A stretch of 63,940 bases of DNA, the filler included, from Craspedostauros australis (taxonomy: Eukaryota), in assembly GCA_030167865.1 (NCBI GenBank). It is 6 parts of 6 records of this genome, joined end to end, with 100 filler letters (N's around TTAATTAATTAA, not from the genome) between each part and the next. Parts side by side here need not be neighbours in the genome. Positions count along the whole stretch, not along the records: positions 42,353 to 54,993 come from JALAGF010002855.1; 5 more parts are not named here. One strand, written 5' to 3'. Position numbers and translations under genes: made by a program. Under the pieces are notes generated by a model that was not told where the DNA came from, did not search any database, and saw only the letters and a list, made by a program, of their open reading frames with translations. Shown one piece after another: positions 15,767 through 62,549 of this stretch; the stretch's first letter is position 1, and each line of letters opens with the position of its first letter.

Positions 15767-15866
15767 NNNNNNNNNNNNNNNNNNNNNNNNNNNNNNNNNN
15801 NNNNNNNNNNTTAATTAATTAANNNNNNNNNNNNNNNNNNNNNNNNNNNNNNNNNNNNNNNNNNNN
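15767..15866. other. 100-nt scaffold gap with artificial TTAATTAATTAA spacer (also 24615-24714, 42253-42352, 54994-55093, 62185-62284)
   Basis: The same N44-TTAATTAATTAA-N44 structure occurs five times; the spacer gives stop codons in all six frames. Confidence 0.95.
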
Positions 15867-17630: not shown

Positions 17631-19631
17631 CCATCTGTTTAGCAGGCGGAAAACAGTCCACAGGATCTGCAAAAGGGACAGAAGGTTCACTTCGCCGGAG
17701 AAGGTCTTCTGTCTGCGTCATGTTTGTCGATGAGAACCACCGAGTTCGGCCACGTTTCAAGTTTCTGTTGTTCCCTTCTCGTTCGTTCCTGTTCGCATCC
17801 GTCCTTGTGCTCCCACGTTCGTACATGTCTGTGTGGTGTTGTGGCTTGCAGCTTCATGTCTGTGCAAGTACTGGTACGCACTCGCACATACTTGTACCGT
17901 ACGTGTCTGCGAGCAAACTGATGCGAAGTTGCCCCGCACAAGACCACAAATAGGAGAGAATGTCCGATCGCGGATTTCTGAGTTTGGGGACAAGTTGTGA
18001 TGCAGTTTGGGGACCAACAACACTGTCCCCATCACCACGTGCCATACCCGCATACTCAGTGGTAGCGACCGTAATCTAAGCTAATCACAAACGACGAACT
18101 GTTCTCCATGTGTGACAGAGAGCGCAAGTAAGAGTGACCTGCAAGCGACGAGGACTGCGGGTATACGAACACTCGTATGTGCAATGGAGTCCACTGGAGC
18201 AACAAGGATAACTGTAGACCAGAGAACATGGGATACTATGGAGTTCAACGAGAGTGGAGGAAACCTGACCTCGAGTCGAGTCGAGTGAAGTGGTGTAGAC
18301 GAGTGCTGCACGTTTGCTTGTCGAAGACTTGGAGTTGAGCAGAGTATCATCTTCGTGAGAGTACCTGTTGCTGTCTTTACCATCGTTGCTGTCGTTCTTG
18401 TCATTGCTGTGGCGGTCATTCGAGTTGGTAAGAGTGCGATTTGCAGCACATTGCAACTTCCGAGAGAAGAACGTCGACCAATCCACAGCATCTGCACTCA
18501 TCTGAGAAGACACCTGCCTCTTGGGGTGGCTGATGTGAGAACATCATCGACGACCGCCGTGTCCGCAGACGTGAGCATCGTCATCATTCTACAGACATCA
18601 GAAAGGGGACCTGCAGCTTCAGCTCCAGACCCAACCTCAGACTTGTGTCCAGACCCAAGCGCATCGGAGAGATCTCTTTGGTGGAGAAAGAGAAGGAGGA
18701 CGAAGAGAAGGACGAAGAGAACGATGAAGAGACGAGACCCGAAACAGCGGAGATGCGCGCAGACACATTGTTTCTGTTCACCTCTTGCAGTTCGGGTTGG
18801 ATCATTGGCTTGATGCTTTCCACGTCCCACAACAGCGTGTCGACAACAACGCTAGCAACAGCAGTGAGGCCGCACAGTATCTGCAAAGCGATGAACCCGG
18901 GTTGTGTTGTCTGGAATCTATCGGTCGAATAGTTGTTCGTGTCACTCCGATGACGAACGGCGTTGTGTCCGTACTACAACTCTTCGATGTTCTCCTCATG
19001 CGCAGGTGCAGCACTTGTATTGCAGTGGATTGCAGTTGGTCGTTTTGTTTCGCATTGTATTTGATTTCTACCTTTCGCTGGTATTACACTTATGACGATG
19101 CGTCACATGACCCCCAACACTTAATACCCAACACGGCATCGGGGCAACGTGGCATAAACAGAACCCTCATGTGACGTGGCGAATGGTAGCATCATCCTTC
19201 ACACACGCAACCACAACCACGTACATTCTCGTACCGCGAAAAAATACACACACACGATACGAGCACGAAGCACAACGGAGTTTTTGTGTGGCACAAAGGC
19301 CACTGCCGCCTTTCTCCCTGTTTCACCGATCACAGAACCATCACAGAACCATCACAGAACCACCACAGGACAACACAACAAGAGATCTCACAAAAAGACC
19401 CTCACCACAGGATTCTCACAATTTACAGACACATCACAGCATCACATCATCACATCACACCAAAACAGATCGCCACATCGGACCACCACGCACAACTAAT
19501 CACGTACTCACAATCGGCAACACCACGATTGCACCAGTATCCTGATCTTCCTGTCTCGTGACCGTGAAGACATGACCAAATACAGCATTGCTGTCAACAC
19601 CATCAAGCAGAACAAGTGAACGAACTCCAGC

Positions 19632-21248
19632 ATGGATGGCATGATGATCGGTGCAGTGGGCGACGGCGTGGTGGATATCAACATCGGTATCGCAACATAT
19701 CCAAACATCACTATGGACCTCGCTCTCGGCCGTGGTTCTCGATCTGGTATCGATATCGACGCCGACGTCGACACCAACACCGGCCCAACCAACAGCAGTG
19801 CAGTCGGCAGCAACCCATTGGAACCAGCGCCCATCGGCTGCAATTCCACCCGAGTGGTCCACTCCGTGGGGCTCATGGACACTTTCGCGAATCATGACCG
19901 CCATCATATCCAAGATATCCACCAGGTCCTCCGCCCATTTGATTGCTCCCAGCATCACACCGATGAGCCACCACAGCATGAGTGCGATTGGGAGAGGCAT
20001 TTCGAGTGCTCCATTTCAGCATCAACAATCGATGCGGATTTGGAGACGACGGAAATCGCAAGCAGAAACGGTGGCCAACACGAGAGCGAGGTTGATGGCC
20101 TATGCGCCATCATGGAGAGAGAGCCTATCAACGAAGCGGTCGGCATGAATGAGGCGTGCGATTTCGCTGGCGTGAGAGAACTCTTGGACGACTTCGGAGA
20201 CTTCGAGGACGAACTCAATGGAGACTTCGATGGAGGATTCGATGATGCATTGCTCCCTCATACATGTGGCAGCAATCGCGGCGATACCAACGACGCTGAC
20301 TCCATCGGTATCATCGACTTCGATGTCGACTTCGATATCGGCAGCATTTATGACACCAACCAATCCGTGACGAAGCACATGACGCCACATCAACACACGT
20401 CCACCGCAGTGCTTGAGATGTGCCGTCAACCAAACATGGAACCACATGCTGCAACGACTGCTGCTGCTCAATGCATTTGGACTTCACCGCGAATAGGATC
20501 GTCGATCACAGCACCAGCGGCGGTAGCCACAACAATGACGCACAGATCGCAGGCGAAGATAAGAGCAAGGACAGCCACAAGGCCGAAGACCAAAACGAGG
20601 GCCGCCAAGAACGTTTCCAAGACACCTCGAACAACCAAACACGCTCCGGGCAATGGCAGCAGCGGTATCAACGGCAGCAACAATAGCAACGGCAAGAACC
20701 TCGTCAAGTTCCGGCACTATCAGTCCAGCCAATGGAGCGTCAAGTACCAACAGCTCGTTCGCTTCCACAGGCAGCACAATCACTGCCTCGTCGAAGCGAA
20801 GGACGACAAGACTCTCTTTCACTGGGTCAAGCGCCAACGATGCCAGTACAAGCAGAAGCAGGAGGGGCGTCACTCCACTCTCACTGATGAACGACAAGGA
20901 AAGCTGCGGCAGCTCGGCTTTGTGTGGGACTCTCACGATGAGGCCTGGGAGAGGCGGTTCAGCGATCTCATGCTGTACAAGGCAAAGCACGGCCACACGA
21001 ATGTTCCCACGATGTACAGCGACAATCCTTCGTTGGGAATCTGGGCAAAGAGTCAACGCCGTCAGTACCGGCTGCATTGCAACGGGCAGAAGTCCACGAT
21101 GACCACCAAACGCATGGATCGACTGAATGCGGTTGGCTTTCCGTGGATGGTGCGTCCTACGCCGATGGGAGCCATCAAGGAGACATTTGGGTCGGCTGTT
21201 GTCGGCGATCTGGTGGGTTTGTATGGGACTGTCGGGCAGGCAAGGTAG
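19632..21248 (+). CDS. HA two-repeat protein, paralog 2
   Basis: 538-aa ORF: acidic N-terminus, then KFRHYQSSQWSVKYQQL...HCLV...WVKRQR...LGFVWDSHDEAWERRF...GHTNVP...LGIWAKSQRRQY. Confidence 0.92.
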   Translation: MDGMMIGAVGDGVVDINIGIATYPNITMDLALGRGSRSGIDIDADVDTNTGPTNSSAVGSNPLEPAPIGCNSTRVVHSVGLMDTFANHDRHHIQDIHQVLRPFDCSQHHTDEPPQHECDWERHFECSISASTIDADLETTEIASRNGGQHESEVDGLCAIMEREPINEAVGMNEACDFAGVRELLDDFGDFEDELNGDFDGGFDDALLPHTCGSNRGDTNDADSIGIIDFDVDFDIGSIYDTNQSVTKHMTPHQHTSTAVLEMCRQPNMEPHAATTAAAQCIWTSPRIGSSITAPAAVATTMTHRSQAKIRARTATRPKTKTRAAKNVSKTPRTTKHAPGNGSSGINGSNNSNGKNLVKFRHYQSSQWSVKYQQLVRFHRQHNHCLVEAKDDKTLFHWVKRQRCQYKQKQEGRHSTLTDERQGKLRQLGFVWDSHDEAWERRFSDLMLYKAKHGHTNVPTMYSDNPSLGIWAKSQRRQYRLHCNGQKSTMTTKRMDRLNAVGFPWMVRPTPMGAIKETFGSAVVGDLVGLYGTVGQAR

Positions 21249-23400
21249 GCACGGAGTCGACGAGCTGATCAACTGGCCAGCGCATGCATACATGCATGTA
21301 TGTACATGACCACAGCAACACGAATACATATTATACATAACGAAGTACCGACATAGCACTGCATAAATTCATGGAATAGAGTATTCGTGTGCTAGAGTTG
21401 AGTTGAGTGGAGTTGAGCGGAGTACGTAGAGTGGATGCGTCGATACTTGCGCAGGGATTGTGAGACTGGTTAGGGTAGTCCATGAATGCTGGTGAGGCGG
21501 AGAGATGAACAGGTCCAGGTAATACACGCGCCACGCGACCCGTCTGTAACCCATTGCGGTGGCGTGAATACGATGGTGACGATGGCGATGGGATAGGATC
21601 AAGGGAGGTCACACAGTATCGCACACTCAACAACGGCGATGTAGTGTGGCGCTATATCGCATTGCGCGTGGAACGGGGCGTGACTATGCACCAGGTCGAA
21701 TCGCATCGCATCACATTGCATCGCATCACATTGCATCGCATCGCACCGTCAAGTACCACATTGCACGTCACTGCACAGATTCAGAACGGCTGGCGAATCT
21801 GCGGTGTTTTTTGCGTTGCACTTCGGATGTGGGCGCTGCGGTTGTCGAGATTTATTCTTCTGCTCATGATCTCGATGGTATGTCTATGCCACCGTCAGTG
21901 AATAGTAGAGGATGGCCGCTTCGCACCTTGCGAAAGTTGGGCGCGATACGCAACCAACCCACTCGTTCTCACAGGTCCATCAATGGTGGAAATTATCGGC
22001 GGTAGTGTCACTATCATCGGTAACTCTTTGCGTATTCCATTCCGCTGCTATCGATGCCGACGCCGATGCCGACGTTGAACTGCCGCCCATCAGGATCTTG
22101 CTCCCATTCCTACTCTGCCCCGTCGTCGTATGCCACAACCACCATCGAGGAAATGCGATGCTGTGATGCTGCATTTCTGACGGCTGTCTGCGTCCACTCT
22201 GTTGCCGTCGGTTGGATTGACACGCTGATGCCAGTACGAGTAGAGTGTCGACCGTCATCGTTGGCTGCACGTCGCTTGTGCGCATGTTGGATTCGTCCCA
22301 TGCTTTCGCGCCGCATCGTAAGATCCATGGCATTGCGTTGCATCCCATTGCGTCTCATCCCGTCGCGTTGCGGTGCTTGTTCGGGCGTCTTCCCACCCAT
22401 CTAAAAATGTGAGGGAAAGTCATTTTCGAGGCGGAAATGGACCTTGGCGAAAGAAAGTGGTTTACGGGATCGGAGTTGGCGAGACACGCAACAACGCCGC
22501 AAAGTAGGGTTCTGGTTGGGTTCGGTGGGGACTGCGTGGTTGTGGGACTGTGTTGATACGTCAGATTGTGTTGTGAGGTGTCGGGGATGTTCGCAATCGT
22601 TATGCAATTCGATGCGTGGAACACAAAGAGCATACTCAGAGCAGATCAAGACGTGCAGAAGACGCTCTCAACGGAGATATCGAAGGCAGATGATGTTCGC
22701 CGGGCGGGGATCGGGTAGAGTTCGGGTTGCAGTTGATGGCTTTGTTGTGTGTAATTTCGCTGTCGTGTTGAGGTTGCTAAATGTTGAACACGTCTGAAGA
22801 GCAGATGGGTCATTGCGTTAAATACTATGTTGTCACATCGGATGATTTGTATGTTCTTTGGTTGCGTTTCGACTAGTCCAATGGGTCATATGTGTCGTTC
22901 CCGTGCTTCATTTATCCGAGTTCGTTGTTGCGGAGTCGGTTCTGTGGTGTTGGTTTGTTCGTTGATCCGTGTTGTGCGTTGGTGTGCTGTGTGATGTGTG
23001 TGATGTGTGTGATGTGTGTGATGGGCGGTCGTGCGAGTGCAAGCAAGAGCAAAATTACGCAGATTGATTGACGTGACTGGGGTCGCTTCCACATTTTGTT
23101 GGTCTGGTCACGCCGATCACAACCTGCTTTGGGCAGATGCCTCATTCCTCTGACACCTTCATGCTCACAATTTCAAATCCATCCGGATCCAAATCCAGCC
23201 CACAATCACACACAATCACCCCGCAAGCGCACTCCCCTATCGCTCACAGTCACGTAAGAAGCTCATCAGAACTGCACAGCGAAAACCAGAAGCGAAAGCA
23301 GAAAGTCGAAAACCGAGCAACCGCCAATTCCATCCACCCGACCTGCACCAACCCACATCAACCAACAGCAATCCACATCAACGACGACAACAACGCCGCC

Positions 23401-24614
23401 ATGATGATGTTCACACCAACTTCCACACAATACAAGCACAGCAACACCATAGTCACCACATCCGACAACGATGTCTTCTTTCCAGTCGACAGCGCAACCA
23501 TGACGATGAACATGACCACCGCCATGAACATGAACGGCATGGTGCGCAACCAGAAGAGGAAATCCCATCATGATCACGACGAGGATGTCGGCCCGGATCC
23601 CATCCAGTACACAGGAATGCGCATCGTCAACGAGGTTCGATTGGAGGACACGTTCGGCCAATGCCGCAACTCCAACGCCAACGCAGAAATCGGCGCCACC
23701 ATGGACAACGACTGCACGTGCGACGCTTCGTGCGGTTCGGCAGTCCCAATGCATGAAGTCGAGACCTTCCTGCGATCGCTGTTCCGAGAAGACGCGTACC
23801 ACCGCAGTCCCGCATCCGTTGCAACCGACGGGTCAACCAACACCAGCCCTCCGCAAGGTCGAAGCGTCCACGTCGAATGCAACAACGAGCCGATTGACGC
23901 ATTCACTGATGTCCGTCATTTCTTGGTGGACATGGAGGCGGGTGTCAACAGCAATGCCAGCAACATCAGCAGCAGCAGCAACAGCAGCAGCATCAGCAAC
24001 AGCGGAAACGACCATTGCCGTGACGGCGACGCGAGTCTGATCGGATTCCATGCCGACATGGACATGTTCAATTCCCATCATTCCTTGCTGTGCTCCACAT
24101 CTGCACCATCGTCGACTTCGATGACATCGGCGACATCCCCACCTCCATCCAAGATACGAAGAGTGATCAGCGACACGAGAATCTCGCCGACATCCACCAA
24201 GGCTGCGCCCTTTGCACCATTCCACAACCACCACAACGCAGCATCACCAATCAAATTCCGCAAGTACCAAGCTGACCAGTGGGAGGCACGATACCACGAG
24301 CTCATCCAGTACCGCGAGACGCACGGTCATTGCCTCGTCGATTCCAACACGGACCGCACCCTGTCCCACTGGATCAAGCGACAGCGTTGCCAGTACAAGC
24401 TGAAGCAGGACGGCAATCACACCACGCTGACCGACGAACGGCAGAGCAAGCTGGAGTCCCTGGGTTTCGTGTGGGATTCGCACGAGGTTGCCTGGGAGTA
24501 CCGGTACCAGGACCTGCTCGCCTTCAAGGCCAGAACCGGTCACACCAACGTGCCCACGGTGTACAGCAACAACCCGTCGCTGGGCATCTGGGTGAAGGGA
24601 CAGCGGCGGCAGTA
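23401..24614 (+). CDS. HA two-repeat protein, paralog 3 (3' end lost in the gap)
   Basis: KFRKYQADQWEARYHEL...GHCLV...HWIKRQR...LGFVWDSHEVAWEYRY...GHTNVP...LGIWVKGQRRQ. Start taken at MMMFTP; the ORF is open from 23137. Confidence 0.9.
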
Positions 24615-24993
24615 NNNNNNNNNNNNNNNNNNNNNNNNNNNNNNNNNNNNNNNNNNNNTTAATTAATTAANNNNNNNNNNNNNNNNNNNNNNNNNNNNNN
24701 NNNNNNNNNNNNNNACACAAACGCAAACGCATCCGCTAAGAAAAGACTGTAAAATAGACGTAGCCAAGCTTGTCGGACAGCAGACACACATTAGCATGGT
24801 TTTGTTGACGCAGAAGGCGACAAAACTAGAACAAGCAAGTACCACGATGCAAGTGGAGGTGCGCTAACACCCAGAACAAGCGCACAGAAAAGAACGAAGC
24901 AGATGGCGCCAGCCAACAACGCGATGAATTGTCGCGACACTCATAATTTGTGTCGTGGATACGTGTTCCAGCCAGTCAAACGCCAAAATTAAA

Positions 24994-31486: not shown

Positions 31487-32531
31487 GGTGTTGATCTTTG
31501 CAGTGTGTATTTGTGTGTGGGCGTGTGTGGGCGTTGATGGAGGCGACAGCAACAACAGCGACAGCGGCGACAGCGATGGCGACGATGGTGGTAAACACGA
31601 CCGTGATGATGTAACCATCGCCGCCATTTCTCTTCGGTTTTTGGCGGTCTTCGTGTCGTTGCTGCTCGATCTTGGTTTGCTACGTACGAAGACAGACGAC
31701 GGCTATTAACCCACGTCACGAGCTGAAGAATTTCGGCGATGGGTCGATTCGTTGGACTATATATCCACGTCTCAAAGACACAAACCGCGAAATTTGTTGC
31801 GCGGAACGCATGGCGAGTTTGCGCAACGCGATGAAAACGAAGGCACAACAACAACGAACCAAGGCACACGACACACGCCAAACCAGTCCATCTCCCACGT
31901 CTCCGCTGTCCGTATTCGTGCTCTCCATCCGACTGTTGTTGTTGTTGTTGTTGTTGGCTGATGTCGTCAAGATACTCGATCTGCATCCTTCGCAGTTGTT
32001 GTGAACAATCGAGAAAGCTGCATTGCTGGTACAAAGACGACAAACACGGGAAGGAAGAGAGCAAAGAAGATTGTATCGTGGCTGTTCTGTTTCGCCCTGC
32101 GATCTGCTCCACGCGCTTCTGTTTTGAATCTGTCGTCTCCGATCGAATCTTGCATTGCATCGCATTGCTTCGCACGACACAATTCTGAGAGGAACAGGCA
32201 AAGCAGAAGCCGCACGGAAGCAAGGCTGTCGATACGCCCACAATACCACACAATACCACACAACACCACACAATACCACACAATACAAACGAGTGCATCA
32301 TCAGGCGTGTCAGGGACAAGTGGGAGTGCAAGAGCAGTTACCATCGCATTGCACACGTTGCACACATCGATGCAAGCCATCCATCGATCACACAGTTGCA
32401 CTCCATAACACGTCCCACTTCAGTCGGACGAGCGGAGCATTCAATCGCGGCATCACCAGTTCAACGACTCCACTATACTCCACTCTCTATTCTGTTCGGT
32501 TCTGCTTGGATCGCTCCAAGTGAATTCAAAG

Positions 32532-35033
32532 ATGATGCTCCCAATCAGGCACAATGGTCAACAGCAACAGCATGAACGGCAACGACAACGGCAACAACAG
32601 CAACAACAGACCCAAGAAATGCGACCACACGCGAAACGAACGAGAAGGCGGCAGAGGACACCAGAAGGCAACAGATGGATGAACCCCAGAACTCTCATTG
32701 CTCTCACCATGGTGGCTTGCAGCTTGGAGTGCGCGCCGATGTGGCAATCCACGATCACGAATACTCACACGAACGCTCGCTCCTCATTGGTACGAGCGCA
32801 GGAAGATCGCAGCTCCAATCACCACCGACACAATTCCAATGACAAGCACCGCGGCACGCGCAACCACGAGGAACCCAAGCTGCGCAAATCGCAAGATGCT
32901 GCGTTGCCTCCCGTTCGTATCCGACGCGGGGAGCCGCAACGGCAGAATCGCAATACTCCAACATCATCGAAGAGGCAGACGAAAGATGGACGTGCATCCA
33001 TGACCCACCACAATGATCCCTATGAGCGATCGACGCGCAATGGTGGCAAGGAGTTTCTGGCGTGGTGTCACAAAGCGTTGGGAATCGTCACGTCGCCATC
33101 GGTGCAGATACAAACGTTCGAGTATTACGATTACATGCGGGCCATGTCGGAAGGGACGGATGTATTTTGTCACGACGACGACGACGAAGACGACGAGGAC
33201 GATAATGACAACTACAACGAGGAGGACGGGCAACAAAGGGATGGCATTGAGAACAGCATCAACAACCACAGGAATGCATTTCACACCAACAGCGGTCACG
33301 GCGGAGACGGCAGCAATCATTTGCAAGGACGCAACCTTGCGCGCGCCGACACGAATGCCATGGACGACGAGACGCACTTCTTCTCACGCTTCAATAATCG
33401 CAAGACGCAGCACTACCGATCGCCCTGTTCCATCAGCGTCACGGAGTATCCCAAGACGCAGGTGCGCGGACTGGCGGCCAGCAAACCCATCGAGGCGGGC
33501 GAGACCATCATCCAGATACCCTACAAGGCCCTCTGGTCCATCGAGAACGTCATCGATCATGACCCCGTCCTCAGCAACGTCCTGGGACCCAAAATACGGT
33601 CGCAGTTCGGTTGGCAGGACGATCTGCAGTACTACGAACTGCCGTTGCTGGCCATCGCCGTGCTGCATCACATGCAGCTGGGACCGCATTCTCATTTCTG
33701 GCCCTACTGGGAACTCCTGCACGACGAGGCGCTGGATTTGCCCACGCTGTGGCAGGCGCACCGTCTCAAGACGGATGCCAGCATCGGCGTCAGGCGCATC
33801 GCGAAGGATATTCAGAAGGATATTCGCGAGATGTACGTGTCCGTCGTGCAGGTGCTCATCGACACGTATCCCGAGCAGTTCGGACCGTTGAACACGCCGA
33901 CGGATGACGCCATCATCGATGAAGACGGCATGATGGAAGACGACGGCGACGACGAAGACGAAGACCTGGACGAGGAAGGCCTGGAGGAGTGGATGTTTTC
34001 GTTTGAACGATTCGAATGGGCGTTCACCATCGTCAATTCGCGGCATTGGCATTTGACCGTGCCGTCCACGCAGGATGCTGCGACGGCGCGCGCGGAAGAA
34101 GCGACGCAGCAGCGCAATCGGGTTCTGAAGATGGCGCAGACGGATGGCGCCTTGGTGGATTCGAGCGATGATGCCGAAGACAAGAACGAGGGAGATTCAG
34201 CAACGGGGGCTGGATCGCCCAACGAAAATCAAGGCAACATCATGGACGCACCGCCGGCATCGGTACCGACCGACGAATGGGTGGAAATGCATGATCACGA
34301 TCTGCAAACGAATGAGCAGGGCGCATCATCCGATAGTAAGGGGGATGATGGAAGTATCACTGACCTTCAGGACGACAACTACGGATACACGAGCCATTCC
34401 TTCCTGGCACCCGTCGCCGATCTCATCAATTTCGGCCCGCCCTGCACGAGAGGGATTTACAATGCCGAGAATCAATCCTTCGACATCGTCGCCACATGTT
34501 CCTTCGTCCCAGGTCAAGAAATCACATTCTGGTACTCGGATGCCTGCCAAGACATCATCATTGCCAATTACGGATTCGCCTTCCCAACCATGATCCCCAA
34601 ATGCTTTGGCGCCAACGATTGGAAAGGGCATGCCCAAACGATGTCCAAGAAGAACCACGACTTGCAGCAGGAATTGCGAAACATGATAGAAGAGCTGGAT
34701 CGCATGGCACTGGCATTGGAATCGACGCAGCAAACTTTGGACGACTGCACCTGCTGTGACACCAAAACGGACAAGCCGCGTGTCAACAGCAATAGCAGCA
34801 AGCAACAGCAGCAACGCCGAATGCCGCCGCCGTCCTTGTTTCCAGCTCAATGGAAGCCATCGTCGTTGTTTGCCACGCCCACCAATCTGTTCGCGAATGA
34901 CGACAAGCACATGGGTATCAGCGGCGGGTCGGATTCGGATGACGGTCGGCTGAGGAATCATGGCACTCGCAACGTCCACGAACGTGATGAAGGCAACGGC
35001 GATTACAATCACGAAGATCACTCGTCGCTGTAG
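32532..35033 (+). CDS. SET-domain protein lysine methyltransferase (Rubisco-LSMT/SETD3-like) with a probable signal peptide
   Basis: EFLAWC, VRGLAASKPIEAGETIIQIP, SHFWPY, FEWAFTIVNSR, LAPVADLINFG, GQEITFWY, ANYGF. Hydrophobic leader MNPRTLIALTMVACSLECA (alternative start 32679). Confidence 0.88.
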   Translation: MMLPIRHNGQQQQHERQRQRQQQQQQTQEMRPHAKRTRRRQRTPEGNRWMNPRTLIALTMVACSLECAPMWQSTITNTHTNARSSLVRAQEDRSSNHHRHNSNDKHRGTRNHEEPKLRKSQDAALPPVRIRRGEPQRQNRNTPTSSKRQTKDGRASMTHHNDPYERSTRNGGKEFLAWCHKALGIVTSPSVQIQTFEYYDYMRAMSEGTDVFCHDDDDEDDEDDNDNYNEEDGQQRDGIENSINNHRNAFHTNSGHGGDGSNHLQGRNLARADTNAMDDETHFFSRFNNRKTQHYRSPCSISVTEYPKTQVRGLAASKPIEAGETIIQIPYKALWSIENVIDHDPVLSNVLGPKIRSQFGWQDDLQYYELPLLAIAVLHHMQLGPHSHFWPYWELLHDEALDLPTLWQAHRLKTDASIGVRRIAKDIQKDIREMYVSVVQVLIDTYPEQFGPLNTPTDDAIIDEDGMMEDDGDDEDEDLDEEGLEEWMFSFERFEWAFTIVNSRHWHLTVPSTQDAATARAEEATQQRNRVLKMAQTDGALVDSSDDAEDKNEGDSATGAGSPNENQGNIMDAPPASVPTDEWVEMHDHDLQTNEQGASSDSKGDDGSITDLQDDNYGYTSHSFLAPVADLINFGPPCTRGIYNAENQSFDIVATCSFVPGQEITFWYSDACQDIIIANYGFAFPTMIPKCFGANDWKGHAQTMSKKNHDLQQELRNMIEELDRMALALESTQQTLDDCTCCDTKTDKPRVNSNSSKQQQQRRMPPPSLFPAQWKPSSLFATPTNLFANDDKHMGISGGSDSDDGRLRNHGTRNVHERDEGNGDYNHEDHSSL

Positions 35034-40467: not shown

Positions 40468-42352
40468 GATGCTTGTTGTTTGTGTTGTTGTTGATGTTGT
40501 TGCAGTTAGCGTTGCAGTTAGTGTTGGTATCGGTTGTGTGGATGTTGCTGTTGCTGTCGGTGGTATTGCAGATTTTATGAGCTGATGATGATGGACAGTG
40601 ACGTTGGTTCGAGTATTGTATGTGGACGATCTATGTGTATGTGTATGAGTGTTGTTGCGCGAGAGTGTATGGCAGTAATAACAGTCGAGAGCAGTGAGAA
40701 TGTGAGAGGGACGTTGCGATTGACGAAGCGTGAATTCAATTTTTGCGATGCAACGGACTCCATCCGCGAGGACACAGATTGCCAACAGCATCATCGTTAT
40801 CATCCATCCAATCGAATGCATGTCCAAATCGTGATGATGGTTTGCGTGACTGTTGGAGGGGGCACTGTCGGAGAGGATGTCATCGATGATGGGCGGGTCT
40901 CTCTCCGCCGTGTCCGCTCTTTGATTTCGAGACACAAACACAACGTTCCCCCGTCAAATTCTCAAAATGTGACGACACAGGAAGTCCGCGACCACGAACG
41001 TGGACGAAAATTGTCGCAACAGAAACTTTTCGCTTCAGTGTTAGTAACGCCAGATAACGTTTGTTCGACACACACGCCCGTAAATAAAGAATTTTCCTCA
41101 CCTAACTAAACCACATGCATCCATTCTGTCTGTCATCTTTCATGTGCCTCGCTGTCACCTCACATCTTTTGTTCAACACAAAGGTGGAGTTCTGCGTCGT
41201 CGTTGGCGAAAAATGTGGCGGACAAAATCAGTGGAAAGGTCACGATCTCAACGAGGTTGACTTGTCGTGTGCGACTCATTGAATTTGGCGTGACGAGGAG
41301 TCGATTTCGTGGGACAGCTGGCTGTGAAGAGAACGGAATGGAGACCAATAATGATGGGGAAGAACAGTCGCCCAAATTGGAAGCGTTATCGTTCAAACAA
41401 GCGTGGGTGTTGGTTGTTGAAGGATGTCCACACTTTTGTCCGTTTCTGTTGGGAGTCGAATCTGCCATGGGGGTTGAACGACGGCCAACGACAATCGTGA
41501 TGACATCCGCGATGGTCAGACATCGAGTTGGCGGGAGACATTGCCAGAGATGGTTCTCCAACAACGATGTCCTGCGGTATTGGGCGAGTGGAACCTTCCC
41601 CAGACTCATCCATCATCTCCGCCTCCGTTTCTGTTTCCATCTTGGGGCAATTCGGTCTTGGGCGAAACAAACCACAGAAGCAAGGAGATGGCGTGTACGG
41701 TAAGATCACGATTCTGTGAGGGACACCGCAATGTACTACTACTATTCTATTACGTATAGTATTATACTATACTTGTAGCGTAACACAGCAACGGCGTGCG
41801 CATTTCGAGGATGGGTCGTGTTCCATCAACACGCCGCCACACGGCGGAGACGGAGAACACAAGATCTTTGGGTTTTGGTTGGAGAGAAACAGTCGCCATC
41901 AAATGGCGTGAGCCCCATGCTCTCCTTTGTGTTCTTGTTGGATCATCGAGGAGGTTGCGGTATTGTTGGAAATCGCACCGCAGACTTCGGTGCGCACAAA
42001 AATCCGACGTATGCACGACAGACGACCAATGTCTACCCAAAGTAGACACAAAGTTAGACTTCTGAAAACGCAGTCCTGAGTTTGATTGGCACAATAGTGC
42101 ACATCATACTTAGGCACACACTCGGTTGCACTGTTCCAAGTTAAGGTCATACTTCTATCGCATGTTCTTCCACCATAAAATCACCTGAACTGCTTATTGT
42201 AGAGTATACTTGATGGCAAAGAGCATCAATGGCCTCCTTCTCGTTGCTACATNNNNNNNNNNNNNNNNNNNNNNNNNNNNNNNNNNNNNNNNNNNNTTAA
42301 TTAATTAANNNNNNNNNNNNNNNNNNNNNNNNNNNNNNNNNNNNNNNNNNNN

Positions 42353-42800: not shown

Positions 42801-43358
42801 CTCGTAACAACTTGTGTGCGAGAATTATGGAAGAGAAAAAGCAGAACCGCCTGATACGTTTGTACTCGTATGGTACGATTGCCTATCCCAGCTTGGCGTG
42901 CTGCAACTGTTTGGATTGTGGCCATCCCTCTCGTGACGGATCAATGTTCGATCGCTGACCACGACTAGTGAGTGAGCAACATCGAAACCTCAGGGGCGAC
43001 TGACGCCGGTTGCGATCGAAACCGGGTCGTACCATGTTCGTATTTCGCACCAACCCCTGCCAAATCCAGTCTTGATACGAGTAGACCTATCGGCATCAGT
43101 GTGTGCGCGCTGCGATACTTCCCCTCTGTTCGGATGCCCTCCAGAGAGAGCTCCGTCTCCGGAAAAGACCTCTTCCTATACTGAGTGTGAGTTGTGTGGC
43201 GGCAACACACCTGTTTGGATCTTGGTTGGTTCGACACCCATCAGCAGCGCGCACAAACGCGGGGTTGATGCCCACATACTGAAAGGGAACGAGATTTTGG
43301 AAACCATTGTCATAGTACTTTATGGGTACACTATCCCGAGACTTTGCTTTTATGTTCT

Positions 43359-46300
43359 TCATTCGTCGTCCTCGTCGTCATCATCATCGTCCTCCTCGTC
43401 TTCATCATCGTCAGCTTGGGCACTTTCAATTCCCTCTTCGCCCTCGTCATCATCTCCATCATCATTATCGTCCTCATGTTCGATTTCGATGAGAACGTCG
43501 ACATGATCGATATCGGATTGAAAATTGACGACGCGACCGATACCTCGGGGTTGGTCATCGCGCAGCGTCAGGGCGACGCTACCCTGGATCTTCTGAAAGA
43601 CGCTGATGAATTCGACTGCCACCTCTTCATCCTGATCGTACGAGAACAAGTTGATATCGAGATGCTTTCTTCCATCCCACACGAGCACAACGCTGCCTGC
43701 ATCGTAAAGGGACGTGATGACGCATCCCTCCATGTCCTCGTCCATCTGCGGAGTGAGCTTATCTCGTGCGCCCACGACGAAGAGCGATAATGCGATGGCC
43801 TCGGCGAGATAGAGCGGAACGATCGGTTCCCCATCCTCGGTTTGCTCCAGCTGGAAGATGCTCTGGCGACCGAACGGCTTCTGCTCTTCGTACTGCTTCA
43901 TCGCTGGCGTTGGATCGTACGCTTCTGGCAAGTATTCGCGTGGACTGAAGTTGTCGAACCACGCCCATTTGCCACCTTGGACCTTTTCAACCTTGGCATC
44001 CAGTCCCGTTGCTTCCTTCATGCTGAGAACCAGTTCACCGAGGTGCTTCGAGTATTGATAATCTCCGATGGACAGCACGCCCATTTCAACAGAACTGCCA
44101 CTGCTGTCACTGGAGAGCCTGACCTGTGCGCGGCTGCTTGGATCCATCGCTTCATCGCGACGCATCTTCTCGAGCAGTCCTCTTCGCCATATCTCCGACG
44201 TGTCCCTCATGAAGGAAACCACCATGTACGAATGGTCTTGGAGAAGCGTCTTGCGGTTTCTCGTGCTGCTCATGATGGAGAAGACGACCTTTGCTGTCTC
44301 GATCTCTGCGCTCTCGTCGACGATCATTGTGGAGATGAGAGATTCGCCAACATCGTTTCGCAGCTGCTTTGTGATGTCGTACTCACAAACGTACATGCTC
44401 GCGGATCTCACTTCCACCGATCCGGTGGTGTCAATTCCGTCGCAGGAGTACACCGCCACGACTTTCTTCACCCCTTCCTTCTGCTCCATCACTTCGCGGC
44501 TGGTACATAGCGCATCCTTGGCCCCGCATACAACGAGGGCCACGCCACCCTCCATCCACAGCATCTTGTCGATTGTGTGGCTCAGTGCCTTGTCGATGGT
44601 CTCCTTGTCGATGGGCTTGATCTCCTTCGCCGCCTCTTGCGCTACATCAGTGCCAACGTCACAATTGCGGCTCATGGCGTTCATCTGCGGACCCATGGTG
44701 CTCTGGTCCTTCTTCCACTCGGGGTATCCGAACATTCCACCGACCACAACGCGGTAGCTGGAATACGATCCCTTCGGGCTTCCCGAGAGCGCGATCAAAG
44801 CATCACGCAGCGCCTCGTACTTGCTGAAGGCACCCCACAAGTGAGCATCGAATGCAATGTAGTCACTGTCCTTCCAGAGTCGTGCCATGACGTATCCCTC
44901 CTTGAGCGTGATGATGAAGGCTTTTTCCGTGGTGGACTTGGCAACAGGTTCGACAGATGTCAGTCCAACCTCTTCAACCGCCTTGGTCACAGCATCCTTG
45001 ACGGCGGAAGTGGAAGATAGATCCATGGTGACCTTTTCAACGTTGAGGATCATGTGCTGTCCTGCTGCCTTGGTCTGCTCGACCAGTTCTGGCTGTGGTC
45101 GGGTCTTGCACTTGCCTTGTTCGGTGGCATTGTTCTTGCGAAAGTCATGGATGAGCCTGAGACGATCCAAGTCTTCCACGATTGGATCTATCAGCTTGTA
45201 TTCGACATCATGGTCCTTGGCGATGTGGTGGAAGAAATCCCTCTTGTTGCTGCCATATACCATGGCTTGTTTGCAAATAGTTGGGACATCATCGACATGA
45301 ATCTCGGCGGTGTAGTCGAAGATCTCGGCCATCTTGTTGTGGTAAAATTCGTTCTTTACCATCACGCCATCAGGCTTGAGGTAGAGGGACAGAGCCTCCA
45401 GGACATCGAGCTCGTCCGTCACGGTGAGAGAAGTGACTGTTTCGGAAAGATCGACAAGGACCATGTCGAAGGAGGCTGCGTAGTCCTCCGGAAGGAGCAC
45501 TAGACTCTTGGTAGCATCACCGTACCACCATTCGACGCGATCATCGTCAAAGTGTGGCTGCGTGTGCATGCGCTTGAAGACCTGCCGGGTGACCTGCTGA
45601 TCGATCTCCAGACCGACTACCAACTCGAGTTCTGGGTATTTGAGAACTTCGTGCAAGATCATGGAATCTCCGCCACCGATGAAGAGGACGCGCTTGACTT
45701 CATCAAGGTATCTGGCGGGATAGTCGACGATGTACTCGTGGTAGTGCGGGCGGTAATCAGAGCAGATCTGCACCGTCATATCGAGATCCATGCAGATATT
45801 CTTGTCTCTGCCACGCACCATGAATCGCATGTCCTGGTAGTGCGTCTCATGCCCTGCGAGGATATGGAATTCTCTGAATTCGAGGATCTCGTCAATATCG
45901 CATACGTTGGTGATGTAGTCGACATCGTCCTTGTCATCGTCGAGATCGTCGTAAGTGTCCTGCACGACGCACTTGTCATCGATGACCTTTCCGTCCAGGC
46001 AGGCCAGATCTTCGTCGCCATCGAAATGTGTGATGAGCGCAAGCTTCATGGCATTCATGATGGCAGCATGGTACTGCATGGCGGACTTCCATTCGTGTTC
46101 CGGAATGTGGCCATCCTCCTGCGTGTTCCATTCGATGTTGCCGATGCGTTGGAGGCGCTGCACGTGATGGCGCAGATACACGATATCCACGTCCTCGAGC
46201 TCCGCCATTGGTTCATCCAGTTGCATGTCGTAGAAAGTCACAGCGATGGTGCCATCTTCTTCGTCCTCGTCCAGATCGACGCGGAGATCCTGAATGTGGA

Positions 46301-47283
46301 ATCCCCAGCGTTGTGGGTAATCCTCGAGGATTCCCTGATCACGGAAGATTTCTGAAGTGATGATACCATGCGTGCGTGTACGTGTGCGTGTGTAAATGGG
46401 GAAGAGAAGTGTAAAGCGTGGAAGAATAGTATAGTATGTAGAGGATGGAATTGTGGTGAGGAATTTGTGTAGGTCCACGAGTGTACATCGCAACCCAAAG
46501 TTGGAAATGGTTGACATTGTCCAGATGCACTTGCCGCCAGTGGATCATGCACGTACCTGGCGTCCCGAACCTCGTCGTGCGATGATTGCAGGCCTTGCAA
46601 AGATTCTGACTGGCATGCAGCTGCTCGCCGGCCTTGATCTTGCGCGTGGCGTAGAAGGAACGCGATTCGCTGTCAGGTTTGACGCGGTGATCTACATTGT
46701 GGTCGACGCCGTTGGCATGCTCGTAGAAATCCAGGAACGGGATCATAGCCTCATCCTCGGAATGCGCCACGACCGCCAACGCCATGGTGCGCTCGACGGT
46801 GGAATTGCCACCACCGCACGTCGTCTCCCAATCATCCGTCAACCAGCCGACGGAATATCCCGGCGTGAGGCCGTCGGTGATTTCTTCGAAGAGGTACCGG
46901 CCGGCCTCGGACCAGGCGGACGGCACGGCGGTCGTCAATGTCGTGTCGAGCAGGTGCTGCACGTAGGCTGCGTGATCGGACGCCTCACCCTTTTCCACTT
47001 CCGCAATCAAGGCTCTCACGAGATTGCAATGCAGATCGTTGGAGGAACCCTCGCGCTCGGCCTCGATGGCGTACTGCGCTGGCACGGTGATGAGCGCTTC
47101 GCCCTTGGCAATGTCCTCGGTGGCGAAGACGCCATCTTCTCGGATCTCTTGCTTGGCGGAGAAGAAGCCGTCCTTGTGCTGCTGGATGGATGCGATGAGT
47201 TGGATGGTGGAATCCGATACTGCAACGGTTGGCGCTGCCGTCAGCGCGACCAGCAACAGCACGCGTGGCAATTGCAGCATCAT
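43359..47283 (-). CDS. Signal peptide - SET - aminopropyltransferase (spermidine-synthase-like) - 2x AdoMetDC-like fusion; candidate long-chain polyamine synthase; exons 47283-46557 and 46351-43359, ~1239 aa
   Basis: Leader MMLQLPRVLLLVALTAAPTVA. SET motifs GVFATEDIAKGEALITVP, MIPFLDFYEH, ATRKIKAGEQL. Intron 46556-46352 gives FGTPEIFRD. APT motifs VQIC...HYHE, KRVLFIGGGDSMILHEVLKY, GLEIDQQV, GDA, FDMVLVD. SpeD-like segments GQHMILNV...EGYVMARLWKDSDYIAFD and GRQSIFQL...GSVVLVWDGRKHLDINLF. Acidic tail. Confidence 0.88.
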
Positions 47284-47935
47284 GGTCAGGCAGCAATGTC
47301 GGTGTTGTTGTTCTGTGGAACCCACTGATGCGAACGCAGTTATGCTGAATGAATGAATGCTTGTGGTGAGTGAATGTGGATGTGAATGTGAATGTGAATG
47401 TGAATGTTGATGGCTATTGTAGCTTCAATGCTATTGTCGTTGTTGTCGTTGTTGCACACCAATTTGCCAAGCTCTTCTCATGCTTCTCTCGCATTGCATC
47501 ATGCGGTTGTGCATCATCTCGCAATGACAAGTGAGTATTGGATCTTTTGGCGGACGCGCAGCTCTACTGGAGGAAGCGCGCAGCACGAAGCCGCATTCAT
47601 GCGTTTGGTGACTTCGGTGCGCGATCCTGACTCGTGATTCACATTCCCATTCGAATCATGGATACGCTAGGCGAAGCCCAAATCATTCTCCCCAAATGAC
47701 CCAAACACGATCGCGGACTTCAACACATCAAGGGGAGAGGAGTGTCTGTTTCCATCGTCTCTCTCTATCGTGGTGTTGTTTGTGTTGTACGACTACTACT
47801 CTGGCTTGTGATCACTGCGGATGGCACCAGGAATGCCCACAACAATCGCAAGCGCAACAGAAGCAACAATACGAGCCAGCAATCGTGCGACCTGCAGTCC
47901 ACTCCCCCACACAAGACAGCAAGGCTCAAGTGACA

Positions 47936-49468
47936 ATGGGAAAGAAGAAGGGCGCAAAGAAGTCCAAGGCCAGCGCCGCCGATGCCAAAGATGTGAAGAA
48001 CACCAGCAGCAACTCGGATCTGGGATCCGCGGTCTCCATCGGCGTGGGCATCTGGGTCGCTGCCCTGGCGGCATTCGCGGCCGTCAAGGCGCCCGCCTTC
48101 TTCAGCCGCAATGGCGACTACGGCACCTTCAACCCACCGGTCGGTCCACCCAAATCCAGCCCGCCCGCGAACCAGCAGACGCCGCGCAATCTGGAGGCCG
48201 AGCGCAGGATCCAGGAGGCCAAGACCTTCGAAGTCTTCGACGCCGAGTACAAGTGCGATACGAAGACCCTGCTGCAGTTCTTGCACGTCAAGCCCGTGCC
48301 CGGCATGCACATGTTCTGCATCGAGACGGCCAGTCCGACGAAGCGCGTTCTCAACGTCTTTCAGGATGCAACGGCCAAGCAGAAGGCCAACGTCACGGAG
48401 GCGGATATCAGCAGGTTCGCGCCGTCCTACGTTGCCGAGATGGAGGCGTGGACGTGGGATACGCTCAAGATGGCATTCAACACCACGTTGGGATGGTCGG
48501 AAACTGGCAAGGACGCTGGCAGCACTGATCCAAGCGACAACCTTGGCGGAGATCACGAGAAGCAACCATGGGCCATCTTCTCACCGACGGGAAAGCGGTT
48601 GATGGATGCGAGCTGGGGTGGACCGGATGCTTCCACGCCTGCGGCAACGAAGAAGGAGGCGGATCGAATCGCCAGTCAGGAGCTGCCCAAGCTCGGCATC
48701 TTCTTCCTCATGGAAGGCGGGCAGTGGATTTGGCCTGGTGTAAGGAAAGGATTCCGACGCACCATCGCGCTCGATGATGCCAACGATGCGACGTTGGAAA
48801 CGCTCTCGCTCAAACCGCTGGTGTTCAGTGTGGAGGGATTCTTGACGGAGGATGAGTGCGACTTCATCCAGGAGGCCGCGGAACCAAACATGAAGTACTC
48901 CGCCGTCTCGCTCATGGACAAGGACAAGGGGCGTCCAAGCTCGGACTTCCGAACCTCCAAAAGTGCATTCGTCACGTCAAACAACAAGCCATGGTTGCGC
49001 ACGGTGGAGGACCGCACGGCCTCGTTGATCCGCACGCCGCGTCAGCACCAGGAGCACGCGCAGGTCTTGCAGTACGGCAACCAGGAGAAGTACGATTCGC
49101 ACTTGGATTACTTCGATCCGAACATGTACCGCAACGATCCTCGCACCATGGCGACCATCAAGCATGGACGTCGCAACCGCATGGCGACGGTCTTCTGGTA
49201 TTTGACCACCGTGGCGGATGGTGGCGAGACGGTCTTCCCACGCGCCGGTGGCCTGCCGCATCCAACTGACAACAACGTCTCAAAGGGTGGTTGCGACGTC
49301 GGGTTGAAGGTCAAGCCGCAGCGTGGCAAGGTCATCATCTTTTACAGCATGACGCCGGATGGCAACATGGACCCGTACTCGTTGCACGGTGCTTGTCCCG
49401 TCAAGGAAGGGGAAAAGTGGGCGGCCAACAAGTGGGTGTGGAACGAACCCATGACATACGTGGAGTGA
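47936..49468 (+). CDS. Prolyl 4-hydroxylase (2OG-Fe(II) dioxygenase), type II membrane-anchored
   Basis: N-terminal TM, then PLVFSVEGFLTEDECD, RTS, QVLQY...YDSHLD (HxD), RMATVFWYL, GGETVFP, SLHGACPVKEGEKWAANKW. Confidence 0.95.
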   Translation: MGKKKGAKKSKASAADAKDVKNTSSNSDLGSAVSIGVGIWVAALAAFAAVKAPAFFSRNGDYGTFNPPVGPPKSSPPANQQTPRNLEAERRIQEAKTFEVFDAEYKCDTKTLLQFLHVKPVPGMHMFCIETASPTKRVLNVFQDATAKQKANVTEADISRFAPSYVAEMEAWTWDTLKMAFNTTLGWSETGKDAGSTDPSDNLGGDHEKQPWAIFSPTGKRLMDASWGGPDASTPAATKKEADRIASQELPKLGIFFLMEGGQWIWPGVRKGFRRTIALDDANDATLETLSLKPLVFSVEGFLTEDECDFIQEAAEPNMKYSAVSLMDKDKGRPSSDFRTSKSAFVTSNNKPWLRTVEDRTASLIRTPRQHQEHAQVLQYGNQEKYDSHLDYFDPNMYRNDPRTMATIKHGRRNRMATVFWYLTTVADGGETVFPRAGGLPHPTDNNVSKGGCDVGLKVKPQRGKVIIFYSMTPDGNMDPYSLHGACPVKEGEKWAANKWVWNEPMTYVE

Positions 49469-54993: not shown

Positions 54994-55093
54994 NNNNNNN
55001 NNNNNNNNNNNNNNNNNNNNNNNNNNNNNNNNNNNNNTTAATTAATTAANNNNNNNNNNNNNNNNNNNNNNNNNNNNNNNNNNNNNNNNNNNN

Positions 55094-61960: not shown

Positions 61961-62549
61961 GATGCCCAATGATTTGTCGAGATGTATATGTGAGTATACG
62001 TCAAGATGTACGTGTATATGTGCATCGTTCACCCGCTATTCTCTCATACGCACTTGGACGGTATAACTATACTCGTGTCGATAGTATACTGTGATTCGTT
62101 AGAATTACAGGGGAAATGGAACACACGAAAAGGGGCAAGATTTCTGGAGGAAATTTGCAAATAACGATTTCTGGGAGAATCAGANNNNNNNNNNNNNNNN
62201 NNNNNNNNNNNNNNNNNNNNNNNNNNNNTTAATTAATTAANNNNNNNNNNNNNNNNNNNNNNNNNNNNNNNNNNNNNNNNNNNNGTCATCGTTTGACCTG
62301 TTCGAACACATTTACCTAGCGAGTAACCGTTATTCCACGTTAACCTTCAACTTCAAATTTGACCCCGTCACATGTTGCAAATCTCCTCACATTTCGGCAC
62401 AGAAGCAACCTTTGGTTCTCTTCGGTGGTGTGCTGTGCTTGTTGCATGTTCACGCAGTGTTTGTATCATCACCTTCTTGCCCTCCAACTGCTCAGTTCAC
62501 TCCCATCACTAGTGGTCGTCTCCATCAACCCTTCAGTATCAATCAGCAT

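Follow-up and report, generated by a model that had tools for sequence, protein, structure and literature searches.

Diatom proteins that fuse an S-adenosylmethionine decarboxylase (AdoMetDC) to an aminopropyltransferase (APT), some of them with a histone N-methyltransferase domain, are proposed to make and methylate long-chain polyamines (LCPAs) in passages of PMC6356823, PMC12029483 and PMC3820600, all of which cite Michael (2011). Excerpts of other articles give 32 APT fusion proteins for Nitzschia inconspicua (PMC12803844) and mention the diatom-specific SET proteins of Nemoto 2020 (as cited in PMC11554505). Since 2011 these fusions have been the leading candidates for the enzymes that build the LCPAs and the polyamine-modified lysines by which diatom silica is shaped. 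The article of that year (Michael, FEBS Lett 585:2627) is said to have already set apart a class with a dead AdoMetDC and an alternative domain order. The locus described here lies on the minus strand of a 63,940-nucleotide stretch of the genome of Craspedostauros australis (NCBI GenBank assembly GCA_030167865.1), composed of six parts joined end to end and called the window below; the gene falls in the part taken from record JALAGF010002855.1. It is a divergent, partly degenerate member of the family published in 2011. The reading favoured here, held with about even confidence, is that it encodes a secretory-pathway enzyme of a SET/APT/dead AdoMetDC-like family that adds aminopropyl units using an externally supplied donor. 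New in this analysis are a degenerate APT-like insert, the death of the first SpeD-like domain across the whole family, and the losses in the SET domain of the window copy.

Membership in the diatom fusion family proposed for LCPAs, which the earlier sequence-only reading had claimed, is borne out by the presence of three domain types and by full-length homology. The 120 listed homologues share 34-43% identity with exon 2 along 95% of its length, with proteins of Nitzschia, Cylindrotheca, Pseudo-nitzschia, Phaeodactylum and Epithemia matching over that span at E 1e-170 to 1e-224, and every named source among them is a diatom. A search of 1.84 billion cluster representatives returned 1710 matches at E<=1e-3, of which 416 reached E<=1e-30. 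No homologue above 44% identity was found among the 120 listed homologues or the cluster representatives, and a neighbouring choline-transporter-like gene is only ~50% identical to its best diatom matches; the organism is therefore a diatom without close relatives in the searched collections.

Domains of the predicted protein

The APT domain is the best preserved catalytic part of the protein. It matches the Pfam family Spermine_synth (PF01564) with 70.7 bits against a cut-off of 22.9 (E 1.5e-19), and its best solved sequence relative is the Thermus triamine/agmatine APT (9e-12, phmmer against PDB sequences). In an AlphaFold2 (AF2) model of exon 2, built from 65 aligned sequences with a predicted local distance difference test score (pLDDT) of 85.8 and a predicted template modelling score (pTM) of 0.88, the domain superposes on many spermidine synthases with Z 23-24, 240-249 residues aligned and a root-mean-square deviation (rmsd) of ~3.0. 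The motifs YHE (203-205, exon-2 numbering as throughout for this part of the protein), GGGD, E248, G277-D278 and D300-L-S-E303 vary little or not at all among 121 sequences, with G225, G227, D228, D300 and E303 strictly invariant, and they align with their counterparts in the Thermus and Plasmodium enzymes. The Asp of GGGD speaks for decarboxylated S-adenosylmethionine (dcAdoMet), rather than S-adenosylmethionine, as the substrate. In human spermidine synthase the Asp of the catalytic motif is described, in passages of PMC12812037, as the base that deprotonates the attacking amine; D300 is placed on that residue by its motif and not by a printed alignment. The domain thus keeps all examined donor-site and catalytic motifs, and activity is predicted. 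The window copy agrees with 93% of the family-conserved APT columns. A spermidine-synthase-type APT with an intact GGGD, as read earlier from the sequence, is upheld by the Pfam score, by the alignment of the motif to solved APTs and by a fold match of Z 24.

The AF2 model orders exon 2 as a linker of beta and helical elements (1-146), the APT (147-405), a beta-alpha-beta4-alpha-beta unit (429-540) and, beyond a disordered segment, an alpha/beta domain (582-792), followed by another beta-alpha-beta4-alpha-beta unit (824-940) and a disordered tail. The first of the two repeated-topology units, SpeD-like fold 1, matches the Thermotoga maritima AdoMetDC (1tlu) at 5e-5 with a 12-sequence profile. 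In that alignment the enzyme's VVVISE-S-HLTIH-TWPE stands on the family's vvvvlkE-G-yvvaR-twpe, and DVYTCG of the Aquifex enzyme on DihlWg, so that T. maritima E62-S63 corresponds to E484-G485, H68 to R490 and C83 to W505. According to passages of PMC10407285, S63, H68 and C83 of the T. maritima enzyme are essential for AdoMetDC self-processing and catalysis. The glycine that takes the place of the pyruvoyl serine, G485, is invariant in all 121 sequences, which indicates that the whole clade is without the pyruvoyl cofactor. With all three residues replaced, the protein is predicted to be unable to make its own aminopropyl donor, which must then come from elsewhere.

This result bears on the word "synthase" in the sequence-only reading, which is too strong for a protein that cannot supply its own donor. 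The corresponding model, in which one polypeptide makes dcAdoMet with its AdoMetDC part, polymerises with its APT and N-methylates with its SET domain, would account for the presence of all three domain types and would agree with reviews whose passages treat fusions of AdoMetDC and APT, in some cases bearing a histone N-methyltransferase domain as well, as potential LCPA synthases. It is nevertheless very improbable: Gly, Arg and Trp occupy the three essential positions, the Gly without exception in the 121 sequences, the Pfam AdoMet_dc family (PF02675) stays under its 25-bit cut-off (19.9 bits, E 9.5e-4), SpeD-like fold 2 has no detectable sequence relation to AdoMetDC, and the window SET domain lacks the Asn of its N-H motif and the catalytic Tyr. 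Of the three domains named for checking by the sequence-only reading (SET, Spermine_synth and SAM_decarbox), Pfam thus places SET and Spermine_synth above cut-off and AdoMet_dc below it.

Together, the two SpeD-like units superpose on the human AdoMetDC proenzyme (1msv) with Z 15.1 over 225 residues (rmsd 3.8, model residues 424-946), and they are modelled as the halves of one eukaryote-type AdoMetDC sandwich. The claim of two SpeD-like folds therefore stands for fold 1 by sequence and for both units by fold, and fails for fold 2 by sequence, since neither phmmer against PDB sequences nor hhalign found a significant relation of fold 2 to anything. Phmmer searches of PDB sequences with exon 1 and with the C-terminal 580 residues gave no match, and the ESM Atlas returned no usable match for residues 425-950; the SET and AdoMetDC structures were reached by profiles only, not by single-sequence searches.

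The domain between the SpeD-like units (582-792) was also folded alone (13 sequences, pLDDT 79.8). Its top 10 Foldseek rows are all spermidine synthases, at weak scores (E 1e-4 to 3e-4, template modelling score 0.36-0.44), and an exhaustive structural search places first the probable spermidine synthase 3gjy (Z 10.7, 180 residues), with many class I methyltransferases at lower ranks (Z 8-9.7). The glycine-rich motif is lost (VVCGAKD), and a D-x-S-A-P-like motif is kept at the place of the APT D-S-S-D-P. On these models, the middle domain is a degenerate Rossmann-type methyltransferase/APT fold set between two SpeD-like folds, an arrangement new here. An internal duplication was sought by sequence and is not established by it: hhalign gave E 0.13 for the middle domain against the APT and E 0.0031 for SpeD-like fold 2 against fold 1, and mismatched control pairs gave E 0.0044 and 0.75, so that the SpeD-like pair scores no better than a mismatched pair. 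The modelled folds alone suggest a duplication. In one homologue (P0045, source name Corethron), the core of fold 1 is tandemly repeated (..KEGYVVSKIHP..YVAFDMSLW.. twice).

The SET domain (PF00856) scores 34.3 bits against a Pfam cut-off of 22.4 (E 3.3e-8), in agreement with the earlier reading. Searches with family SET profiles bring up Rubisco LSMT, SETD6 and SETD3 (7e-5 to 1e-4). The N-H of these three enzymes aligns on the family's (N)HRNG, the Tyr after their GEQ/GHE on the family's S-Y-N, and their next Y-G on Y-G-T-P. The N-H motif and the active-site tyrosines are required for SET catalysis. At these columns the family has N in 49/70, Y in 62/72 and Y in 66/72 sequences; in the window copy N-H is replaced by E188-H189, the catalytic Tyr by Q226 and the second Tyr by F239, and H174 stands where the family has Arg. 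With E-H, Gln and Phe at the key positions, N-methylation by this protein is doubtful. Across 54 family-conserved SET columns the window copy agrees at 80%, against a median of 96%, and only three of the 65 others are lower, which makes it the fourth most divergent of 66. The APT domain, the two SpeD-like units and the middle domain agree at 93-100% of their conserved columns, and the SET domain therefore seems to be decaying or changed in function while the rest of the protein is normally constrained. Elsewhere in the window, an 874-residue open frame at 32409-35030 (+) has a weak SET match below cut-off (5.8e-4) and may be a second SET-type gene, ~8 kb off along the joined stretch.

Such losses raise the question of whether the protein is an enzyme at all. 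It could be a pseudoenzyme or scaffold without catalysis that captures polyamines or the cationic domains of silaffins, with its acidic tail and dead pockets as possible binding sites; of the four domain types that it has from enzymes, three are degenerate, its SET domain ranks among the most divergent, and 30 of its last 40 residues are D or E. A dead APT would not be expected to keep every examined motif and 93% of its conserved columns, and a purely non-catalytic role is accordingly considered unlikely. The aminopropyl-transferring enzyme with an external donor is the reading carried forward below.

Table 1. Positions of the fusion gene, its exons and its predicted domains and motifs in the window (a slash marks a putative cleavage site).
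Feature	Position	Strand	Description
Exon 1	46557..47283	(-)	242 codons and the first base of codon 243; sequence and translation
Intron	46352..46556	(-)	205 nt, GTACGT...TTCAG, phase 1
Exon 2	43359..46351	(-)	ends in stop codon 43359-43361
Signal-peptide-like N-terminus	47218..47283	(-)	~residues 1-22, MMLQLPRVLLLVALTAAPTVAV/S; hydropathy
SET core	46615..47133	(-)	residues 51-223; Pfam PF00856; post-SET flank runs into exon 2
APT domain	45135..45911	(-)	exon-2 residues 147-405; Pfam PF01564, 1.5e-19
GGGD motif, dcAdoMet site	45666..45677	(-)	exon-2 residues 225-228; aligned to GGGE/GGGD of solved APTs
D300-L-S-E303	45441..45452	(-)	aligned to the DSSD/DLTD catalytic motif of solved APTs
SpeD-like fold 1, catalytically dead	44730..45065	(-)	exon-2 residues 429-540; profile match to T. 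maritima AdoMetDC
Degenerate APT/class I methyltransferase-fold domain	43974..44606	(-)	exon-2 residues 582-792; AF2 model
SpeD-like fold 2	43530..43880	(-)	exon-2 residues 824-940; same beta-alpha-beta4-alpha-beta order as fold 1 (model)
Poly-acidic tail, disordered	43362..43481	(-)	last 40 residues, 30 of them D/E

Gene structure and the intron in the SET flank

The locus consists of two long minus-strand open reading frames (ORFs), at 46339-47424 and 43359-46544, and the coding sequence begins with the earliest Met codon of the upstream frame (ATG 47283-47281). The donor context reads ..CCAG/GTACGT.. after 46557 (G/GTACGT) and the acceptor context ..CACTTCAG/AAATC.. before 46351 (TTCAG/A), with slashes at the exon boundaries. 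Splicing yields a coding sequence of 3720 nt and a protein of 1239 residues with one terminal stop only. In the alignment with the 120 homologues, the window protein reads ..SQNLCKACNHRTTRFGTP/E/IFRDQGILEDYPQRW.. across the junction, and the consensus ..SYNxCxxCxxRxxxYGTxEIxRDYGFVExxPQRW.. passes over the predicted junction free of gaps (at the junction itself, the family consensus is written YGTxE(I/L)xRDYGFVExxPQRW).

The junction was compared in 80 related metagenome loci, 72 of which hold both parts; two of the uninterrupted loci, L050 and L052, seem to be one record filed twice. The SET and exon-2 parts are adjacent and in the same frame in 64/72 loci and lie 107-482 nt apart in the remaining eight. 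In seven of these eight (L004, L017, L018, L026, L036, L042 and L080), YGTxE(I/L)FRDYGF is restored by removal of 101-155 nt as a GT..AG intron that shares its codon and phase with the window's (YGTx/E, phase 1); for the eighth, L065, a GT..AG solution at the same codon was sought and none was found. The SET part is absent from 54 of the 120 database homologues, 26 of which start no more than 40 residues from the junction motif with unrelated leading residues, and such starts look like what ORF callers would yield at an intron. Together, the continuous loci, the introns at the same codon and the ORF starts indicate that the locus is one gene unit and that the intron position is old. From this comparative evidence, the locus is predicted to be one two-exon diatom gene, with an intron position in the post-SET flank that is apparently conserved among paralogues or species. 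The splice between the two ORFs at 46557/46351, as proposed in the sequence-only reading, proves exact in its coordinates, given the 3720-nt frame, its single stop and the continuity of the related loci.

The alternative that the locus is unspliced and holds two separate genes, one for a small secreted protein with the SET domain and one for a cytosolic APT protein translated from an internal Met, is scarcely credible. It could draw on the SET-less database homologues and on the lack of an RNA read spanning the junction; the 26 homologues that resemble calls truncated at an intron and the 64 continuous loci speak against it, as do the post-SET flank situated in exon 2 and the 72 unrelated residues that an unspliced exon 1 would gain. 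One public run (X1, its kind only guessed as RNA) contains contigs that match 43338-44033 and 44041-44206 with zero mismatches, one of them ending 21 nt beyond the stop codon.

Compartment, proposed function and neighbourhood

The N-terminus of the protein is hydrophobic, its highest Kyte-Doolittle mean over 10 residues being 2.83 (residues 8-17), and 53 of the 64 full-length SET-bearing homologues that start with Met have a similar N-terminus. In the family proteins P0003-P0254, 25/252 have -EL at the C-terminus, where ~1.8 would be expected from composition, and eight of these 25 have -DEL; another 15/252 finish in -WA. Retention signals of the endoplasmic reticulum (ER) type seem to be present in a subset of the family. 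The family also shares at least 14 conserved cysteines, which would fit disulfides in an oxidising lumen. Because of the hydrophobic N-termini, the -EL ends in the family and the conserved cysteines, the evidence points to a location in the ER or secretory pathway, and the earlier proposal of an endomembrane lumen is consistent with all three. The poly-acidic tail seen by the sequence-only reading is present as described, and pLDDT falls below 50 at exon-2 residues 965-996 of the AF2 model.

After entry into the ER, the APT would take dcAdoMet made by another enzyme and move aminopropyl units onto an amine acceptor, which may be a growing oligo-propyleneamine chain, either free (an LCPA) or borne by silaffin lysines. 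The C-terminal module, itself non-catalytic, could act as a scaffold or as a holder of ligand or chain, by analogy with human spermine synthase, and in the window paralogue methylation would probably be left to other family members. A role in LCPA or silaffin modification is plausible and only inferred; the iterative aminopropylation and the acceptor, be it free polyamine or silaffin lysine, are inferred along with it.

Several points weigh against this reading. The second acidic residue of the APT catalytic motif is Glu instead of Asp family-wide. The putative signal peptide is called from hydropathy, and the window protein itself is without an -EL end. A lumenal enzyme would need dcAdoMet to be delivered into its compartment. 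The X1 contigs cover the 3' end only, with none across the junction, and are uninformative on splicing or expression. Literature searches found no functional test of any family member, and a passage of PMC12803844 (JBC, Dec 2025) states that the diatom fusions "require further study".

The same APT could instead serve in a compartmentalised synthesis of ordinary or medium polyamines (spermidine, norspermidine or thermospermine-type) unrelated to silica. The broad specificity of the Thermus triamine/agmatine APT, its best solved relative, would suit such a role, and a passage of PMC6356823 suggests norspermidine synthesis as a possible role of the diatom fusions. All named members found are from diatoms, the family is strongly expanded (the 32 Nitzschia inconspicua fusion proteins of PMC12803844, and the 416 representatives at E<=1e-30), and it bears secretory signals; this combination would be unusual for housekeeping polyamine synthesis, and the alternative is given a minor, though real, share of belief.

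A more specific form of the favoured reading makes the protein a protein-lysine APT that starts and processively extends oligo-propyleneamine chains on silaffin lysines in the ER/Golgi lumen. In that case, the cationic chain would be held during its growth by the dead AdoMetDC sandwich together with the degenerate second domain of APT fold, helped by the acidic tail, and this second domain could be the fossil of a second APT-AdoMetDC-like module. A protein-bound acceptor might be preferred to a free one because the family SET domain is nearest to the protein side-chain modifiers LSMT, SETD6 and SETD3. To our knowledge, no APT-fold enzyme acts on protein lysine, and this form is put forward as a long shot.

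The wider reading, an external-donor APT of the secretory pathway, leaves the specialist picture of the family unchanged and sharpens what may be expected of the clade: own donor synthesis would be impossible, the domain order would be APT, SpeD-like, APT-like and SpeD-like, and members would carry ER-type signals and an old shared intron in the SET flank. As a divergent member in which only the APT looks catalytically intact, the window protein would offer a clean test of the APT part alone.

Divergent (head-to-head) to the fusion gene, with 652 bp between the start codons, lies a 510-residue 2-oxoglutarate-Fe(II) oxygenase gene (47936-49468, +; PF13640, 1.3e-15) whose product has a hydrophobic N-terminal segment. 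Diatom wall proteins contain hydroxylated lysine and proline, and a promoter shared by the oxygenase and the fusion gene would for that reason be of interest. The pairing occurs in 0/80 related loci, which is weak evidence as most of these loci are only ~4 kb long. Two further open frames, 19620-21245 (+) and 23077-24663 (+), each contain two helicase-associated (HA) domains (4e-35 and 4e-31). An identical pattern of 44 N, 12 bases and 44 N recurs at 15767-15866, 24615-24714, 42253-42352, 54994-55093 and 62185-62284 and is filler between the parts of the window; the copy at 42253-42352 lies ~1 kb downstream of the fusion gene.

Comparison with known systems

The closest described systems are the diatom AdoMetDC/APT/SET fusions themselves (Michael, 2011). 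As far as the passages on them go, they share with the window gene the same three domain types, the distribution in diatoms and the abundance of paralogues; the window copy differs in its degenerate SET residues. The solved enzymes most closely related to the family's SET domain are Rubisco LSMT, SETD6 and SETD3, methyltransferases of Lys or His in proteins; the family consensus keeps their N-H motif and both of their tyrosines, unlike the window copy with its E-H, Gln and Phe. No counterpart of the helical lobe with which LSMT binds its substrate was detected in the protein described here.

The Thermus thermophilus triamine/agmatine APT (1uir/3anx), the top solved sequence match of the APT domain, has the same D-L-(S/T)-acidic motif, but is a stand-alone, cytosolic and bacterial enzyme. 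Class 1b AdoMetDC (SpeD/SpeH, T. maritima 1tlu) resembles SpeD-like fold 1 in its fold, in its profile match and in the local pattern ..E-x-..W-P-E..Y-A-x-D.., and differs in having the S63, H68 and C83 that are replaced here, where the Pfam score lies under the gathering cut-off. The eukaryotic class 2 AdoMetDC (human 1msv) shares the two-half alpha-beta-beta-alpha sandwich, at only 9% identity; in the modelled protein a domain of ~240 residues is inserted between the halves, and the processing serine is missing.

Human-type spermine synthase is likewise an APT fused to a non-catalytic domain derived from AdoMetDC, and its APT fold (3c6m) matches the one described here with Z 18.8. Passages of PMC12803844 describe the dead class 1b AdoMetDC-like domain of the human enzyme as needed for dimerisation and activity. 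That domain is single, N-terminal and mediates dimerisation, whereas in the protein from C. australis two halves are modelled C-terminal to the APT as one intramolecular sandwich with an inserted domain, and a SET domain and a putative signal peptide are present in addition.

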